Virus record (IMG/VR): IMGVR_UViG_2877953467_000002
Direction: 5' to 3' (one strand)
DNA: 40,890 nucleotides
DNA from: a virus
Lineage: Duplodnaviria > Heunggongvirae > Uroviricota > Caudoviricetes
This document shows positions 3,954 to 40,890 of this stretch, in pieces; position 1 is the first letter of the stretch; each line of letters starts with the position of its first letter. Under the pieces are notes generated by a model. The model had not been told where the DNA came from. It worked only from the letters and a program-made list of their open reading frames with translations, and made no database searches. A program made the translations under genes and the position numbers.

Positions 3954-4145
3954 TTAAAATCCTGCCGGGATTTCGTTATTATCCTGGTGAATAACTTTAT
4001 CGACCGGATAACAGTTGCCTGGAATTTTCTGTTCGGTTGCTGCTGCCATACATTCCTGCATTGTTCTGTGAACACTGACTGCAATATCAACTGGCTCTCC
4101 GGAAACAAGAAAAACCGTCAGAATAAGTGCAAATACTGGATTCAT
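3954..4145 (-). CDS. ydfD: YdfD-like small membrane protein (Qin-type lysis protein)
   Basis: 63 aa with hydrophobic N-terminus (MNPVFALILTVFLVSG); ATGA stop/start overlap with dicB; position and size match ydfD of the Qin dicB operon (from memory). Confidence 0.55.
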   Translation of the reverse strand: MNPVFALILTVFLVSGEPVDIAVSVHRTMQECMAAATEQKIPGNCYPVDKVIHQDNNEIPAGF

Positions 4146-4499: not shown

Positions 4500-4557
4500 A
4501 AAAAGGGCGGCAGAGCAGTCACGGAGTAAAACTGATACCGCCAAACGTCACCAGAAA
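4500..4557 (-). ncRNA. dicF: DicF small RNA (Hfq-dependent, ftsZ-targeting) with intrinsic terminator
   Basis: Reverse complement reads TTTCTGGTGACGTTTGGCGGTATCAGTTTTACTCCGTGACTGCTCTGCCGCCCTTTTT, which matches DicF as I recall it; GC-rich hairpin plus U-tract at the 3' end; immediately upstream of dicB. Confidence 0.7.
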
Positions 4558-4898: not shown

Positions 4899-5117
4899 TT
4901 AACGCGGGTATGTAATCATTCTGGCAATGCTTAATGCCGCTGCTTTTTCCAGCCTGGTGATATCCTGCTCCAGAGCGGACAGATTTTCAGCCTGCTTAGC
5001 CCTGGCTTCATTGGCCCATTTCAAATCCTGCGCTGCATTAATTTTCTGGCGCATCCACTCATAAAGTTCATCATCGGTATAGTCTGGCGCGATGATGACG
5101 GGTTCTCGTTTCTGCAT
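4899..5117 (-). CDS. ydfC: YdfC-like protein of the dicB operon
   Basis: 72-aa ORF with AAGGAG RBS; position and length match ydfC upstream of dicF in Qin. Confidence 0.55.
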   Translation of the reverse strand: MQKREPVIIAPDYTDDELYEWMRQKINAAQDLKWANEARAKQAENLSALEQDITRLEKAAALSIARMITYPR

Positions 5118-7223: not shown

Positions 7224-7294
7224 CTGACAATAGTCATATCGAATCGCTTCCGGCAACTCGTGAGTAAAAAGATTCGGTATCAGAAGAGGTGAGT

Positions 7295-8365
7295 ATGGCT
7301 AACGCCTGGCTCAGATTATGGCATGACATGCCAAATGACCCTAAGTGGCGAACAATTGCCAGGGTGTCAGGGCAGCCAATTGCAACAGTGATGGCAGTGT
7401 ATATCCACCTCCTGGTGAGCGCGTCACGAAATGTCACGCGAGGTCACATTGATGTCACGACAGAAGATTTGGCAAGTGCGCTCGACGTGACAGAAGAGGT
7501 AATTGATTCAATTTTGCAGACGATGCAGGGGCGGGTACTTGATGGTGATTTAATCACTGGATGGGAAAAACGCCAGGTGCTGAAAGAGGACAACGGCAAT
7601 ATTTCGCAAACCGCAAAATCTCCGGCAGAGCGCAAGAGGGCGCAGCGAGAGAGGGAAAGAAAGCGGGAACAAAATGGCGATTGTCACGGCGAGTCACGAA
7701 ATGTCACGCACATGTCACGACGAGTCACGACAGATAAAGATACAGATAAAGATACAGATCAAGAAGATCAAAACACTATGGTCCATGGCGTAAAAAACGC
7801 CACGAACCAGGCAGGGGATGTTCAGACCGTCACTCCTGGCCAGCCCGCAGGCACGACACCGGAAGCCGATTCAGCGTATGCGCTGAAAGCCGATTCGGGC
7901 GCTGTGCAGCAGGTGATGACCGCAAGGCAGGAGCAATCACACCAACTTCAGCAGCCTGAAGCCGATTCCGCCATTCAGCGGGAAGCCGATCGGGTAGTCC
8001 CGGAAAACACCGGGCAGCCTGTGGGACGAGTGGATTATCCTGATGTGTTCGAACAGGTCTGGCGGGAATACCCGTTGCGTGCCGGGGCAAACCCGAAGAA
8101 ATCCGCTTTCAGTGCCTGGAAAGCCAGATTACGCGAGGGGGTGCCACCAGAGGCCATGCTGGATGGCGTGAGGCGTTACGCAAGATACCTTGCGGCTACC
8201 GGGAAAACGGGAACGGAATTTGTTCAGCGAGCGACGACGTTTTTTGGACCGGACCGGAATTTTGAAAACCCCTGGCTGCTCCCGGTAAGCGGCACGAACA
8301 ACCAGCGTTGTGTGAATCATATTTCTGAACCGGATAACGAAATTCCGCCGGGCTTCAGGGGGTAA
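7295..8365 (+). CDS. Replication initiator (O-like) containing its own iteron origin
   Basis: 356 aa; GAGG RBS 6 nt before ATG 7295; two clusters of GTCACG(A) iterons and an AT-rich tandem repeat lie inside the coding sequence, as with lambda O/ori. Confidence 0.6.
   Translation: MANAWLRLWHDMPNDPKWRTIARVSGQPIATVMAVYIHLLVSASRNVTRGHIDVTTEDLASALDVTEEVIDSILQTMQGRVLDGDLITGWEKRQVLKEDNGNISQTAKSPAERKRAQRERERKREQNGDCHGESRNVTHMSRRVTTDKDTDKDTDQEDQNTMVHGVKNATNQAGDVQTVTPGQPAGTTPEADSAYALKADSGAVQQVMTARQEQSHQLQQPEADSAIQREADRVVPENTGQPVGRVDYPDVFEQVWREYPLRAGANPKKSAFSAWKARLREGVPPEAMLDGVRRYARYLAATGKTGTEFVQRATTFFGPDRNFENPWLLPVSGTNNQRCVNHISEPDNEIPPGFRG
7423..7460 (+). repeat. Iteron cluster 1 (GTCACGAAATGTCACGC ... 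GTCACGA)
   Basis: Four GTCAC(G/A) repeats at about 10-bp spacing; the 17-mer GTCACGAAATGTCACGC recurs identically at 7693-7709. Confidence 0.55.
7683..7766 (+). repeat. Iteron cluster 2 (5 x GTCACG at 10-11 bp spacing) followed by an AT-rich 12-bp tandem repeat (CAGATAAAGATA x2, third copy degenerate)
   Basis: GTCACG at 7683, 7693, 7703, 7714, 7724; tandem repeat 7731-7766; arrangement typical of a phage ori embedded in the initiator gene. Confidence 0.55.
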
Positions 8366-8405: not shown

Positions 8406-8828
8406 GTGGCAAAAGTTTTTACACAAGAAGAGCGGGAAAAAATTAAAGGACAGGTTCTTGAACTCGTACGCCAGAGTGGGCGCGAGACGTTACGACAACT
8501 GGAAGCTAAAACTGGGGCAACAAGATATCTGATGAGCGTTCTGGCCAGAGAGCTGGTTGCCAGTGGCGATGTATACAATTCTGGCTACGGGTTATTCCCG
8601 TCTGAACAGGCTCGTAAAGACTGGCAAAATGCCCGCAAAAAATTATCGAGGGCAAAGCTGAAGAAACCGGTTGTGGTTGATCCGGACCTTATCTGGTCGT
8701 TACCTGACGGAGAAATACGTCGCTACGACAGTCGCCTAAACATAATCTGTCGCGAGTGCCGGAAGAGTGAAGCTATGCAGCGTGTACTGGCTTTCTATCA
8801 GGGTAATTTTCAGGAGGCGGTACTGTGA
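8406..8828 (+). CDS. Hypothetical protein
   Basis: 140-aa ORF with GTG start after AGGAGG; no recognisable motif. Confidence 0.45.
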   Translation: MAKVFTQEEREKIKGQVLELVRQSGRETLRQLEAKTGATRYLMSVLARELVASGDVYNSGYGLFPSEQARKDWQNARKKLSRAKLKKPVVVDPDLIWSLPDGEIRRYDSRLNIICRECRKSEAMQRVLAFYQGNFQEAVL

Positions 8829-8885
8829 GTGAAATTAGCTATCAGGCTTCAATTACCGCTGGCATTCGCATCAAAGGAGAGGAGC

Positions 8886-9242
8886 ATGGAAATAAAACCA
8901 GAGGATGAGTTAAGCAATATCGTTTTATTTCCGGTAAAAGAGGATGACCCTCGTAATCAGGTTAATTTTCTTTATGAGCCATCGGAAAGACCATATTGTC
9001 ATCACGCCTCTGTCCGGGTTGACGAAAAAGAGCGTCAGGTCCGCTGTAAAATCTGCGGTGCAGTTGTGGAGCCATTTGACTGGATGCTCTCTGTGGCGAA
9101 AAGAGAAACCAGACTGGCAGATGATGTAAGGCTCTTGCGTCAGGAGGAGCGGGAAAGGCGAAAAAATATAGAAAAGCTAATTCAGATTGAGCGTAACGCG
9201 AAAGCGCGGATACGCAGGGCGACAAAATCCAGAACTGAATAA
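8886..9242 (+). CDS. Hypothetical protein with CxxH/CxxC zinc-finger-like motif
   Basis: 118 aa from ATG 8886 (AAAGGAGAGGAG RBS); YCHH...CKICG motif; basic C-terminus. Confidence 0.5.
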   Translation: MEIKPEDELSNIVLFPVKEDDPRNQVNFLYEPSERPYCHHASVRVDEKERQVRCKICGAVVEPFDWMLSVAKRETRLADDVRLLRQEERERRKNIEKLIQIERNAKARIRRATKSRTE

Positions 9243-9335
9243 TTAAATTTAGCTCTGTTAAAAATTTAATCCTTAACCGGAGGGATTTCTGCACCCTCAG
9301 AACATCAGGAGGCCGCCCGAAAGGGCGGTAGTTAA

Positions 9336-9518
9336 ATGCGAAAGTTTAAAATAATTATTGAAACGGGAATAGCCGGTGGAGATTTCGAGGATGAATTCGA
9401 AGTGGATGATGATGCGACGCCTGATGAAATACATGACGAAGCAAAAGATATTTTCTTTAACTACTGCAATTACTCATATCACGAAATAAAAGACGAAGAG
9501 GAAGAACAAAATGGCTGA
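9336..9518 (+). CDS. Small highly acidic protein
   Basis: 60 aa, rich in D/E (FEDEFEVDDDATPDEIHDE...DEEEEQ); AGGAGG SD separated from the ATG by a 6-bp GNRA hairpin. Confidence 0.5.
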   Translation: MRKFKIIIETGIAGGDFEDEFEVDDDATPDEIHDEAKDIFFNYCNYSYHEIKDEEEEQNG

Positions 9519-9687
9519 TTTTGGTTCAACTAAATACAACGTCAGTTTTGAAGAATGGCATGAACTGTTAATGGACTATGCAGAGTTACGTGGTGGCAGT
9601 GCTGCTGATGCTGAAGCATGGCGTGATGATTATGAAGCAGGAAAAACTCCGGTCGAAGCATATTGTGATGAGTGGGGCGATGAATGA
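9511..9687 (+). CDS. Small acidic protein (below the ORF-track size cut-off)
   Basis: 58 aa by manual translation from ATG 9511 (MADFGSTKYNVSFEEWHELLMDYAELRGGSAADAEAWRDDYEAGKTPVEAYCDEWGDE); GAGGAAG RBS; overlaps the preceding acidic gene by 8 nt. Confidence 0.4.
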   Translation: MADFGSTKYNVSFEEWHELLMDYAELRGGSAADAEAWRDDYEAGKTPVEAYCDEWGDE

Positions 9688-10170
9688 GCGAGGTTAATTA
9701 TCAGGAAGGGCATGAAACGGCGGGGCAAGCAAAAACAGTGGCATGGCGATATCGCTACGTGAAAAAAAAGGCGTTACGGACTTTCAGGAGAAGTAGTGGT
9801 CTGGTGACTGGAAATATGTACCGAAAAAAGAGGATTGTAACGACAGGCCGAACTATGAAATTCAGGCCTTATTCACTGCCCCGCCAGTCCCGGTTACATC
9901 AGAAGAACTGGTTAAAGCTGTGCACTTTTATGAACAACTAAAACGCGAAAATCCACCAGCATCCGGAAACCTGATTACAGATTCCCAGATAAGGCAATGA
10001 GCTACCTGGCGCAGAACGGGCTGATAAGTATGGGGAATGTTTTACGATGAATATTTAGACTAAAGAGTTTGTAACGCTATGTAAGTGATTTTTTCTGGTT
10101 TAGATATTTATATGTTCGGCCAAATTGAGGTGTGTTTAAATGTAATTGCACATTGATTGTAGGAGGAATA

Positions 10171-10433: not shown

Positions 10434-10552
10434 GACTGCGGGTGCTTGAGGCTATCTGTCTCAGGCATGAACACCAAAAGGCAGATAGAGAAAAGCCCCA
10501 GTTAACATTACGCGTCCTGCAAGACGCTTAACATTAATCTGAGGCTCAATCT

Positions 10553-10765
10553 ATGAACGGCAAATCTAGGTTAGCCTCTTACGTGCCGAAAGGCAAGGAG
10601 AAGCAGGCTATGAAGCAGCAAAAGGCGATGTTAATCGCCCTGATCGTCATCTGTTTAACCGTCATTGTGACGGCACTGGTAACGAGGAAAGACCTCTGCG
10701 AGGTACGAATCCGAACCGGCCAGACGGAGGTCGCTGTCTTCACAGCTTACGAACCTGAGGAGTAA
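10553..10765 (+). CDS. mok: Mok-like overlapping reading frame (modulator of killing)
   Basis: 70-aa ORF that begins upstream of and runs through the hok frame, as in hok/sok loci. Confidence 0.5.
   Translation: MNGKSRLASYVPKGKEKQAMKQQKAMLIALIVICLTVIVTALVTRKDLCEVRIRTGQTEVAVFTAYEPEE
10610..10765 (+). CDS. hok: Hok/Gef-family type I toxin
   Basis: 51 aa MKQQKAMLIALIVICLTVIVTALVTRKDLCEVRIRTGQTEVAVFTAYEPEE: single TM helix followed by the conserved RK(D/S)LCE(V/I)R...EVAAF-like core of Hok proteins. Confidence 0.8.
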   Translation: MKQQKAMLIALIVICLTVIVTALVTRKDLCEVRIRTGQTEVAVFTAYEPEE

Positions 10766-11212: not shown

Positions 11213-12271
11213 GTGCGGATATTACTTCGACCTGTTCTGGTACCGGAACTCGGGCTGGTGGTCCTTAGGCCGGGCCGTGAATCCATGCAAGTATTTCATA
11301 ACCCTCGAGTGCTGGTGGAGCCTGAACCGAAAAGCATGCGCGGTCTGCCGTCCGGAGTCGTCCCTGCCGTTCGCCAGCCGCTGGCGGAGGATAAATCATT
11401 ACTGCCATTTTTCAGCGATGATCGGGTGATTCGTGCTGCTGGCGGCGCTGGGGCACTGTCTGACTGGCTGTTGCGTCATGTCAAATCCTGCCAGTGGCCT
11501 CATGGTGACTATCATCACAGTGAAACCGTCATTCACCGTTACGGTACCGGCGCGATGGTGTTGTGCTGGCACTGTGACAACCAGTTGCGGGACCAGACAT
11601 CAGAATCACTCGGGCAACTTGCTCATCAAAACTTGTCAGCATGGATGATTGACGTCATCCGTCACGCAATCAGCGGTACGCAGGAGAGGGAGTTATCGCT
11701 GGCCGAATTATCCTGGTGGGCGGTCTGCAATCAGGTGGCTGATGCGCTTCCGGAGTCTGTATTGTGTCGTTCACTGGGATTACCGGTGGAAAAAATCCGC
11801 TCCGTATACCGTGAGAGTGACATCGTACCGGGAGAACAGACTGCCACCAGCATACTGAAGCAGCGCACAAAAAATATTGCGCTGCCACTTCACGTCCACC
11901 AGCAACAGCCCCCACTCCAGGAAAAGACGTTAGTAAGCATCGCCGTTGATCCGGAGTCTCCGGTTCAGTATCTCCAGCGCCAGAAACCACAACGGGAAGA
12001 GATGCCTGTATACACGCGCTGGGTAAAAACGCAGAAATGCATGACGTGCGGTAATCAGGCAGATGATCCGCATCACATCATTGGTCATGGCCTGGGAGGT
12101 ATGGGAACAAAGGCTGATGATTTGTTTGTTATTCCGCTGTGCCGTAAATGTCATAACGAACTGCACGCCGGGGTAAAAGATTTTGAAGAAAAACACGGCA
12201 GCCAGCTGTTGTTGCTGATTCGTTTTTTAATGCACGCGAGAAATTCGGGTGTCCTGAAGTGGAAAGCATGA
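11213..12271 (+). CDS. ydfU: DUF968-family protein (YdfU-like) with C-terminal HNH-like Cys/His motif
   Basis: 352 aa, GTG start after GGAGG; C-terminal CMTCG...HHIIGHG...CRKCHNELH motif; synteny with ydfU next to the Q-like gene. Confidence 0.7.
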   Translation: MRILLRPVLVPELGLVVLRPGRESMQVFHNPRVLVEPEPKSMRGLPSGVVPAVRQPLAEDKSLLPFFSDDRVIRAAGGAGALSDWLLRHVKSCQWPHGDYHHSETVIHRYGTGAMVLCWHCDNQLRDQTSESLGQLAHQNLSAWMIDVIRHAISGTQERELSLAELSWWAVCNQVADALPESVLCRSLGLPVEKIRSVYRESDIVPGEQTATSILKQRTKNIALPLHVHQQQPPLQEKTLVSIAVDPESPVQYLQRQKPQREEMPVYTRWVKTQKCMTCGNQADDPHHIIGHGLGGMGTKADDLFVIPLCRKCHNELHAGVKDFEEKHGSQLLLLIRFLMHARNSGVLKWKA

Positions 12272-13613: not shown

Positions 13614-13689
13614 GGCCCTTTAGCTCAGTGGTGAGAGCGAGCGACTCATAATCGCCAGGTCGCTGGTTCAAATCCAGCAAGGGCCACCA
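13614..13689 (+). tRNA. ileZ: tRNA with CAU anticodon, closest to tRNA-Ile2 (ileX/ileZ-like)
   Basis: 76-nt cloverleaf folded by hand: acceptor GGCCCTT/AAGGGCC, D-arm GCTC...GAGC, anticodon loop CTCATAA, T-arm GCTGG TTCAAAT CCAGC, encoded CCA; near-identical to E. coli ileX as recalled. Confidence 0.8.
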
Positions 13690-14031: not shown

Positions 14032-14228
14032 ATTGTCTGGCTGCCGGAGAATTTGTTAAAAATTACATCGCATGGTGAATCCCCCTCAGCGGCGGGGCAT
14101 CTGGCAAAGTGTATGATCCAGAGAACATGCAAATTCAGTAGACAGGCTGAATTTACCGGGAGGCCCCTGGCACCATGCGACAGACAGAAATTAGGCTATA
14201 CTTCAGCCCCTCTCCGGAGGGGCTTTTC
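14032..14228 (+). repeat. Noncoding repeat unit, copy 1, ending in an intrinsic terminator (14205-14228)
   Basis: About 200 bp; shares ATTGTCTGGC, GTTTGTTAAAAA, GCATGGTGAATCCCCCT, an ACCGGGAGGC-CC-GGCACCATGC hairpin motif and the terminator AGCCCCTC-TCCG-GAGGGGCT with copy 2. Confidence 0.5.
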
Positions 14229-14418
14229 TGTGCAGGATGTGTCACAGTTTCCTGAATTCTGAGTACTGTCCTGTTACTCAGGGTGCTATATTTTCTGACG
14301 TGATGAAAGTCTGCCGGAAGGCGGAACGTATCGGAAATGACCCAGTAGAGAAAACGTTGACTCAGATACCGATGCTGAGTTACCGGGAAACCGGCATCAC
14401 ATGACCGCTATCCTTCCA

Positions 14419-14500: not shown

Positions 14501-14693
14501 ATTGTCTGGCCGGCGGGAAGTTTGTTAAAAAATTTCGCATGGTGAATCCCCCTGTGCGGAGGGGTAATCAGCGAGTAGGTATATGGGATAATCGCGGATT
14601 CAGGTGCTGGTACTGAATTCACCGGGAGGCACCCGGCACCATGCAATGGCACATAGCGCCACTCTCCAGCCCCTCTCCGGAGGGGCTGTTTAT
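14501..14693 (+). repeat. Noncoding repeat unit, copy 2, ending in an intrinsic terminator (14668-14693)
   Basis: See copy 1; conserved blocks flank a divergent central segment. Confidence 0.5.
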
Positions 14694-14722
14694 ATTGATT
14701 TTGTCAGATGTGAGTAAACTCC

Positions 14723-40000: not shown

Positions 40001-40890
40001 GGTCGGTAGGCACATCAGAAAGCACAGGCAAAATGTTGTTCCTGAAAAACCACAGAAGCAGCGCTCAAGTGCTGTTAAATGGCGATGATGGAGCGGTTCA
40101 ACTACTAAGTGGCACTGTTAACGGTGCTACAGCGCAGGCGCTAACCATCAACAAAGATGAGGTTAACTCAACTGCCGATTTAGTAATTAGAAAACAAACA
40201 GGGACTGGCAATCGTTTTGCTTTACTTAATTCAGGTAATTCAGAACTACCAGTTAGTATCAGGGTGTGGGGTTCCAGTACTCGACAAAACGTTTTTGAGG
40301 TTGGAACGTCTGCTGCGTATCTGTTTTATGCGCAAAAAACAACAGACGGGCAAAACCTTACTGAACCGCCCCGGGTTTCCTNNNNNNNNNNNAGGATTCC
40401 CGGGGCGGTTCATACTGTAAACGGAAGTGTTAACTGCACCACACTGAATCAGTCATCAGACCGCAGACTGAAAGAAAATATCGAGATTATCGATAACGCG
40501 ACTGACGCAATCCGCAAAATTAATGGATACACGTACACGCTCAAGGAGAATGGGGCACATTGCGCCGGGGTTATAGCCCAGGAAGTTGAAGAGGCCATCC
40601 CGGAGGCCGTTGGTTCATTCATCCATTACGGTGAAGAGTTGCAAGGCCCGACCGTTGACGGCAACGAGCTACGCGAAGAAACGCGCTATCTTAATGTTGA
40701 CTACGCCGCCGTGACGGGTTTACTTGTTCAGGTCGCCCGTGAAACAGATGATCGCGTTACCGCGCTGGAAGAGGAAAACACAACGCTACGTCAAAATCTG
40801 GCAACAGCAGGCACCCGGATCAGCACTCTGGAAAATCAGGTAAGCGAACTGGTTGCACTTGTCCGGCAGTTAACAGGAAGCGAACATTAA
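37078..40890 (+). CDS. stf: Side tail fiber protein (lambda Stf-like N-terminus, Ala/Ser-rich fibrous repeats, C-terminal S74-type intramolecular chaperone domain)
   Basis: N-terminus MAVKISGVLKDGTGKPVQNCTIQLKA... matches lambda Stf as recalled; long SAxxSA repeat region; C-terminal SDRRLKENIEII...GYTYTLKENG motif of auto-cleaving chaperone domains; contains the 11-N gap; stop at 40888-40890. Confidence 0.85.
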   Translation: MAVKISGVLKDGTGKPVQNCTIQLKAKRNSTTVVVNTLASENPDEAGRYSMDVEYGQYSVILLVEGFPPSHAGTITVYEDSRPGTLNDFLGAMTEDDARPEALRRFELMVEEVARNASAVAQNTAAAKKSASDASTSAREAATRATDAAGSARAASTSAGQAASSAQSASSSAGTASTKATEASKSAAAAESSKSAAATSAGAAKTSEMNAAASQKSAATSASTATTKASEAATSARDASASKVAAKSSETSAASSAGSAASSATAAGNSAKAAKTSETNADNSAQAAADSQTASANSATAAKKSETNAKNSEAAAKVSETNAKASENKAKEYLDKVGGLVSPMTQYDWPVVTGNESFYIKIAKLSDPGSGNCHVTLMVTNAGNYGSPYGNIDFIEISARGLPSLLSADNVSRHLSIRRLGSIGLTDNNQMRYGLVKGDGFIEVWAFQRAFINGAKVAVLAQTARPELYIPDGFVKQTAAPSGYVESPVVRIYDQLNKPTKADLGLSNAMLTGAFGLGGSGISTNGKMSDVEILKALRDKGGHFWRGDKPTGSTATIYSHGSGIFSRCGDTWSAINIDYSTAKIKIYAGNDARLNNGTFSINELYGSANKPSKSDVGLGNVTNDAQVKKSGDVMSGDLDILKETPSIRLKSAKGTAHLWFMNNDGSERGVVWSPENNESLGEIHIRAKNTKGESSGDFIVRHDGRVEARNLKITYKISAATAEFANTSTSSDNTTVSIKGSQHTPLVLTSNNTIKNLSIGFKVDDVDQKYLGIAGDGDLYFGSYSDHTKNSKVITQAKLDSGVTVGGKTTFSDFATFNAGMAGSIEPETIDNKTIDLNDLIIANTVAGSVKYYQCKTVAGGAYITNKPDGVSGNFLLRVESTRKTTGSDYAIMQTLIGSDTKRIYVRFVVNGNWTEWSQVVVSGWNQDVTVRSLTSTTPSKLGGGRVDVLGSTSDYSSMNCAVRGVDSTGTNSAWSVGTSESTGKMLFLKNHRSSAQVLLNGDDGAVQLLSGTVNGATAQALTINKDEVNSTADLVIRKQTGTGNRFALLNSGNSELPVSIRVWGSSTRQNVFEVGTSAAYLFYAQKTTDGQNLTEPPRVSXXXXRIPGAVHTVNGSVNCTTLNQSSDRRLKENIEIIDNATDAIRKINGYTYTLKENGAHCAGVIAQEVEEAIPEAVGSFIHYGEELQGPTVDGNELREETRYLNVDYAAVTGLLVQVARETDDRVTALEEENTTLRQNLATAGTRISTLENQVSELVALVRQLTGSEH
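40382..40392. other. Assembly gap (11 N) flanked by a 14-bp inverted repeat
   Basis: Run of n characters inside the stf ORF; left flank TGAACCGCCCCGGG (40363-40376) is the reverse complement of the right flank CCCGGGGCGGTTCA (40399-40412). Confidence 0.95.

Follow-up and report, generated by a model that had tools for sequence, protein, structure and literature searches.

How is translation started at a gene whose perfect Shine-Dalgarno (SD) sequence lies 23 nt upstream of its ATG, with a stable hairpin in between? The question is raised by ORF1, the first of two tandem small acidic genes (ORF1 and ORF2) in the virus record IMGVR_UViG_2877953467_000002 (Caudoviricetes). The whole stretch of 40,890 nucleotides, a Qin/Rac-like lambdoid prophage of E. 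coli, is referred to here as the window. An earlier note, made from the letters alone, had proposed that the hairpin bridges the gap and that the two proteins are DNA mimics or other anti-defence factors. As judged from sequence comparison, the SD and the hairpin form one portable unit that is reused before many unrelated accessory genes; this reuse is what is new, the split-ribosome-site device itself being known.

On re-reading of the sequence, the positions given earlier for the SD, stem, loop and ATG were all correct (Table 1). The AGGAGG hexamer forms a predicted duplex of -10.3 kcal/mol with the 3' end of 16S rRNA. Folding of the hairpin 9313-9328 alone gave -12.4 kcal/mol, and its pairing probability was ~1.0 in each mRNA length folded (76, 133 and 201 nt). 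An earlier start of ORF1 is impossible because an in-frame TAA (9333-9335) directly precedes the ATG. The window has a single instance of the composite motif (GGAGG, a perfect 6-bp/4-nt hairpin, 4-10 nt, ATG), which arose 2 times across 300 first-order Markov simulations of the window (both strands); the SD-hairpin arrangement was found at no other gene start in the window. No intrinsic terminator or promoter was predicted within 9243-9335 on the plus strand, and the stem, which is not followed by a U tract, is not terminator-like. Rfam searches over 9150-9450 returned no family at the gathering threshold or at E<=10, the top match being SscA with 18.5 bits against a threshold of 60. The leader was also considered as part of an upstream ORF and rejected as such, since its frame, though open over 9270-9332, lacks a start codon. 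Of the proposed bridged site, the geometry thus stands (SD more than 15 nt away, stem wholly between, 23 nt folding to 7), and the proposal as a whole is only partly supported.

Copies of the unit were collected by scanning IMG/VR and by BLAST against phage records, which gave ~140 copies (72 distinct). At least seven gene families of E. coli and Shigella prophages, unrelated to one another, have AGGAG(G/A/T)-CCGCCC-GAAA-GGGCGG 6-11 nt ahead of their start codons. The spacer from stem to start is 7 nt before DUF7167 genes, the family of ORF1, 6 nt before DUF4014 (a 72-aa membrane protein), 8-9 nt before two Ead/DUF551-like families, 9 nt before the MQDIKEN family, 8 nt before a 43-aa ORF and 11 nt before a Q-antiterminator-like protein (PF06530). 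The lengths observed (6, 7, 8, 9 and 11 nt) are constant inside each downstream family. The gap between the stem and the stop codon upstream of it varies between 4 and ~65-70 nt, while SD and stem are directly adjacent throughout, in long and short upstream contexts alike. The constant downstream and variable upstream distances indicate that the hairpin is tied to the downstream start, and in most of the downstream genes no other SD lies between stem and start. For a role of the hairpin, this positional argument (SD abutting the stem, 6-11 nt to the start) is stronger than that from stem variation given below.

Two kinds of upstream context were seen. In the long form, as in the window, the unit is preceded by a leader (...TTAATCCTTAACCGGAGGGATTTCTGCACCCTCAGAACATC), which is missing from the short form; there the MLNTQK... 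gene stops at a TAA 4 nt before AGGAGG. The long leader is itself preceded by three different sequences further upstream (contexts A, B and C), and the four contexts (A, B, C and short) pair freely with different downstream families in the reassortment table. ArgO145 (L002) carries two direct copies of the cassette, at 4003-4024 and 5075-5096 (AGGAGG motifs at 4003-4008 and 5075-5080), which flank DUF7167, ORF2 and Ead. In L110 (7473-7498), L037 and L100 the same flanks meet at one cassette copy, the two BLAST pieces sharing a 26-nt overlap inside it. Read from these alignments, the difference is a cassette-bounded insertion/deletion of 1,072 bp carrying DUF7167-ORF2-Ead. In O157:H7, where the cassette stands before DUF4014, and in other genomes only window 9264-9330 matches, between unrelated flanks.

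Among 185,579 species representatives the leader was seen in E. coli and Shigella only, bar one 3-kb contig of a metagenome-assembled genome, which is probably contamination; the cassette was absent from K-12 Rac. An identical AGGAGGCCGCCCGAAAGGGCGG in L064 (11454-11478), which with its 22-nt SD-hairpin looked like an independent case in a P2-type phage, was rejected: it lies within a small-terminase ORF (11415-12071), encodes the terminase peptide ...AQEAARKGG..., and is a coding occurrence unrelated to the cassette.

Variation of the hairpin was followed in an alignment of 52 distinct leader copies, all from E. coli or Shigella and ~92% alike. Across them 99% of stem cells are paired. At five of the six pairs the variation is one-sided and always yields G.U via C-to-U, and the tally is 20 wobble cells against 3 unpaired. 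C-to-U changes occur at 5/6 of the stem C positions, against G-to-A at 1/6 of the G positions, a suggestive asymmetry that would fit an RNA helix in the sense strand. The SD varies among copies (AGGAGA, GGGAGG, CGGAGG, AGGAGT), all variants directly abutting the stem, and some copies have the loop GGCA or TAAA in place of GAAA.

A bridged (split) ribosome site is the favoured reading of the ORF1 start, because the precedent of T4 genes 38 and 25 matches its geometry (23 to 7). In this mechanism the module would be part of the early rightward transcript, and ribosomes would enter through the strong AGGAGG, the abutting stable GAAA hairpin and the short A/U-rich spacer. Folding of the hairpin would shorten the SD-to-AUG distance from 23 nt to ~7 nt; the distal SD would be the one used, and the folded hairpin would enhance initiation. 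ORF2, and then the decayed ORF3, would be translated by coupling, ORF2 through its own SD within ORF1 and the overlap of its start with the ORF1 stop. As the same cassette heads many unrelated accessory genes, its copies may serve as homology patches for gene swap, insertion and deletion. Taken jointly, an accessory module of Qin/Rac-like type, with ribosome entry by a portable split-site cassette, coupled ORF2 and ORF3, and cassette copies acting as homology patches, is an account that we hold to be slightly more probable than its negation.

Table 1. Features of the ORF1-ORF3 locus and of the neighbouring genes, in window coordinates
Feature	Position	Strand	Remarks
Long-form leader	9243-9306	+	From stop of upstream zinc-ribbon gene (9240-9242) to SD
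Shine-Dalgarno AGGAGG	9307-9312	+	23 nt upstream of ORF1 ATG
Hairpin CCGCCC-GAAA-GGGCGG	9313-9328	+	6 G-C/C-G pairs, GNRA tetraloop
Stem arms CCGCCC / GGGCGG	9313-9318 / 9323-9328	+	
Loop GAAA	9319-9322	+	
Spacer TAGTTAA	9329-9335	+	A/U-rich, 7 nt, stem to ATG
ORF1 start ATG	9336	+	
ORF1	9336-9518	+	60-aa acidic protein, DUF7167 (phrog_1997); Pfam and PHROG profile matches
ORF2 SD GAGGA	9498-9502	+	Within ORF1 acidic-tail codons, 8 nt before ATG 9511
ORF2	9511-9687	+	58-aa acidic protein, three helices (predicted); C-terminal part of phrog_519; no Pfam family
ORF3	9684-9941	+	85 aa as called, disrupted Ead/DUF551-type gene; start coupled to ORF2 stop (ATGA)
O-like replication gene	7289-8365		
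DUF977/Ren-like gene	8406-8828		
Zinc-ribbon gene	8829-9242		
hok/sok	10440-10765		Followed by ydfU, rusA, Q and a tRNA

A more general form of the proposal, to which we give somewhat less than an even chance, would make the SD, the GNRA hairpin and an A-rich spacer a mobile translational cassette. It would act as a context-independent split site for any gene placed behind it, and its copies would be crossover points for shuffling; separately, one of the acidic proteins might be a counter-defence factor.

Several observations weigh against bridging. The long leader lowers the predicted accessibility of the SD from 0.75 to 0.35-0.42, the SD being partly paired. Among the 52 copies there are no double compensatory changes, and shuffled alignments score the same as the observed covariation, because the copies, at ~92% identity, are too alike for covariation to show. 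Since the copies are that similar, confined to E. coli and Shigella and free of double compensatory change, recent spread, and not selection, could account for their conservation. In a few natural copies the stem is weakened (CGGCCC; CCGCCA; CCGCCA with GAGCGG). The Q-like genes behind the cassette have their own GGAG 3' of the stem, so the cassette is not always needed. Lastly, the 3' arm AGGGCGGU lies at normal spacing and can itself pair with the anti-SD, with a predicted energy of -8.1 kcal/mol (AGGAGG: -10.3), so that the stem, instead of bridging a distal SD, might mask a proximal one.

This last point can be extended into an alternative that we regard as unlikely. The functional SD would be GGGCGGU in the 3' arm, weak but proximal (6-7 nt before the ATG) and sequestered by the hairpin so that translation is low; AGGAGG would be a stand-by site where the 30S subunit waits for the stem to open. 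Phage mRNAs commonly have inhibitory stems at start sites, for example at T4 e, soc and 49 (PMC3014915), and the further drop in predicted SD accessibility with the long leader is in keeping with such masking. However, a stem of -12.4 kcal/mol would nearly always be closed, and the seven gene families behind it would be almost silenced. The 3' arm varies less than the 5' arm, which speaks for masking, but this is explained equally well by G-to-A changes breaking pairs, which C-to-U changes do not. A perfect AGGAGG abutting the stem is, moreover, kept in nearly all copies.

The hairpin might also have no translational role, acting between cistrons as an mRNA stabiliser that shields the upstream one from 3' exonucleases, or as a homology patch kept by recombination, or both, with AGGAGG incidental or an orphan. 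This we consider quite improbable. REP-type mRNA stabilisers are GC-rich stems without a U tract, and the stem here has that character. Recent spread is in keeping with the narrow host range and the ~92% identity, a cassette-bounded insertion/deletion exists, and the DUF7167 genes of Klebsiella phages have no cassette. To these is added the leader itself: its 5' half (TTAATCCTTAACCGGAGG, window 9265-9284) is the ordinary ribosome-binding site (RBS) of a 70-aa MLNTQK... gene in L112 and in ArgO145 (L002 3735-3786), where the ATG follows 7-8 nt downstream. Column identity of the leader is ~92% across the 52 copies. It contains an SD-like GGAGGG (9279-9284) able to pair with CCCTC (9294-9298), and the helix GAGGG 9280-9284/CCCUC 9294-9298 has 97.7% of its cells paired and no compensatory changes. 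Because its 5' half serves as an RBS elsewhere, the long leader of the window may be no designed regulator but an orphan RBS that stayed behind after gene loss and is now joined to the SD-hairpin unit. Against a role confined to structure stand the position of the stem, 6-11 nt from the downstream start at a variable distance from the upstream stop, the lack of any other SD in most downstream genes, and the abutment of SD and stem in both upstream contexts. With this tight coupling to downstream starts, a purely structural role (stabiliser and recombination patch) is less likely than bridging of a distal SD.

Both acidic ORFs are real, conserved genes. ORF1 (20 D+E, 5 K+R, net charge -15, pI 4.05) scores 55.1 bits (E 7.9e-15) with Pfam PF23768 (DUF7167), for which the curated gathering threshold is 24.4; its residues 2-53 span the full model (positions 1-60 of 60). 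It also matches phrog_1997 with E 9e-31, and its RefSeq name is DUF7167 family protein. An exhaustive HMMER search of 1.8 billion proteins gave 99 cluster representatives of DUF7167, mostly of 50-60 aa, and relatives were found by tblastn in Klebsiella, Enterococcus, Pseudomonas and rV5-like phages. The family consensus is M-K-x-V-x-x-E-T-G-x-x-G-...-F-E-V-x-D-D-A-T-x-E-E-I-E-E. AlphaFold2 with 61 sequences gave a predicted local distance difference test (pLDDT) score of 89.7, with strands at 2-8 and 17-23 and a helix at 29-43, a predicted small beta-beta-alpha fold. A search for the hairpin at distant DUF7167 genes was unsuccessful, the Klebsiella phage genes being start/stop-coupled without it. 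In Klebsiella phage VLCpiS11a (L168), in 37P2 (L170) and in Enterococcus phage MDA2 (L169), from two unrelated phage groups, DUF7167 homologues adjoin and overlap an annotated exonuclease gene, an association that is weak but recurs. Two large proteins, P0155 (3033 aa) and P0163 (368 aa), contain 4 and 8 DUF7167-like stretches respectively; the domain therefore also occurs as a tandem repeat unit.

The start of ORF2 overlaps the ORF1 stop (ATGGCTGA), and its SD has a predicted duplex energy of -6.0 kcal/mol. The protein (16 D+E, 4 K+R, net charge -12, pI 4.05) matches phrog_519 with E 4.5e-23 over profile positions 76-137 of 143 only, not over the full length. In some Enterobacteriaceae proteins (e.g. 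P0217, 127 aa) an ORF2-like domain is fused behind DUF1187, which probably explains the 143 positions of the profile. Profile searches gave 151 relatives, in Enterobacterales prophages and Ackermannviridae (e.g. CBA120 orf183), with the conserved core GGSAADA-x-AW-x-x-DY-x-x-G-K-T-P...DEWG. The AlphaFold2 model (pLDDT 88.3; helices 13-27, 34-42 and 47-55) predicts a three-helix bundle. That ORF1 and ORF2 form an obligate pair was considered and rejected: they are adjacent in 59/62 E. coli-type loci, but apart in Enterococcus, Klebsiella, Ackermannviridae, Enterobacter and Serratia phages or prophages.

Compared with an intact homologue (L157:4655-5074(-)), ORF3 is broken by a frameshift in the A8 run 9763-9770 and by an in-frame TAG at 9794-9796. 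Translation in the frame of 9770 gives ...GVTDFQEK*WSGDWKYVPKKEDCNDRPNYEIQALFTAPPVPVTSEELVKAVHFYEQLKRENPPASGN..., which matches intact Ead/DUF551-type homologues such as this one, from which an extra A in the A8 run and the in-frame TAG follow. The disrupted sequence is identical in the induced phage vB_EcoS-640R1.

Searches of PADLOC, NCBIfam and PDB sequences with ORF1 and ORF2 gave no matches, and no paper turned up in full-text literature searches for DUF7167, the hairpin sequence or the N-termini of the proteins. The two proteins are acidic members, of compact predicted fold, of widespread, already catalogued phage families. By inference only, their most likely role would be the binding of a host or phage protein early in infection.

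Ocr (T7 gp0.3), ArdA and the two proteins here are alike in being small or moderately small, very acidic, early-expressed products of mobile elements, and counter-defence genes usually sit among early accessory genes. The net charges of -15 and -12 in ~60 aa, the conservation of acidic positions in both families, and the occurrence of both as early accessory genes in many unrelated phages would accord with DNA mimicry or another anti-defence role. Ocr and ArdA are, however, elongated dimers mimicking ~24-42 bp of DNA, whereas ORF1 and ORF2 are predicted to be compact single domains of ~60 residues. The structure prediction and comparison suggested in the earlier note detected no sequence or fold homology to Ocr or ArdA, and neither protein resembles these or any protein of established function. 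The proposal that one or both are DNA mimics or other anti-restriction or anti-defence factors thus finds no support and is very unlikely, since beyond family-wide acidity nothing links them to such a role, whose probability is low and not zero.

Besides the genes of Table 1, the window carries dicB, DicF RNA (4505-4556, minus strand), cI, dicC and cII-like genes. The label 'nin region' given to the locus is positionally fair, ORF1 and ORF2 lying between the replication genes and hok/sok, ydfU, rusA and Q. The segment 9200-9750 is 100% identical in the induced phages vB_EcoS-640R1 and -813R8, and 9235-9705 has matches in 2,533 of 5,426 complete E. coli genomes, 1,735 of which cover at least 80% of the query; strain ATCC 25922 carries the module at 99.4% identity. 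Elsewhere in the window, tandem copies of the STnc100 small-RNA family lie at 14040-14233 and 14509-14697 (138 and 132.5 bits), downstream of a tRNA (13614-13686), and 11 consecutive N, from masking or an assembly gap, occupy 40382-40392.

If bridging holds, split ribosome sites would be more than a T4 curiosity: as a device in wide reuse, they would occur in about half of all complete E. coli genomes, and gene finders and RBS calculators that assume 5-10 nt spacing would mis-score such starts. As a defined crossover point, the cassette bears on the mosaic evolution of lambdoid accessory regions, those of Stx phages included. Should the mobile-cassette proposal be right, it would be a translation-level counterpart of the T4 PeSLs described below and a concrete case of the linker sequences long proposed for lambdoid mosaicism. 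Host-interaction screens could reasonably include ORF1 and ORF2, whose families are widespread and whose folds are modelled with confidence; neither is singled out as an anti-defence protein.

Among known systems, boxB of the lambda nut sites shares with the hairpin 9313-9328 a short GC stem, a GNRA-type loop and a place in the early lambdoid transcript. In boxB a 5-bp stem carries a pentaloop, boxA (CGCTCTTA) comes before it, and the site is near pL or pR. The present hairpin has 6 bp and a true tetraloop, can occur in several copies per prophage and always lies just before starts. boxB was ruled out by this stem and loop geometry, by the lack of a conserved boxA, and by the multiple copies right before start codons.

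PeSL cassettes of T4-type phages combine an early promoter with a terminator stem-loop and work at the level of transcription (Arbiol et al. 2010, PMC2839356; PMC4122927). They and the SD-hairpin cassette are alike as short stem-loop motifs repeated at the borders of variable or non-essential genes in plastic parts of the genome, where copies are points of recombination (insertion, deletion, swap). No promoter or terminator is predicted in the SD-hairpin cassette, which would act, if at all, on translation; since the sigma-70 early promoter and terminator are missing, it is an analogue of the PeSLs and not a member.

The closest likeness is to the split ('accommodated') ribosome sites of T4 (Nivinskas et al. 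1999; Malys & Nivinskas 2009, reviewed in PMC3014915). A hairpin cuts the SD-AUG spacing from 22 to 5 nt at gene 38 and from 27 to 11 nt at gene 25, mutations that destabilise the stem reduce translation, and the stem is kept among T-even phages (PMC3014915). The putative split site of the window is unrelated to these in sequence, belongs to a temperate lambdoid prophage, is repeated before many unrelated genes, and has a 3' arm that could itself be a weak SD. On geometry it agrees with genes 38 and 25: at all three the SD lies more than 20 nt from the AUG, a stable hairpin stands wholly between them, and the folded spacing is normal. In the window's relatives, whose copies are ~92% alike, the stem appears to be kept as well.
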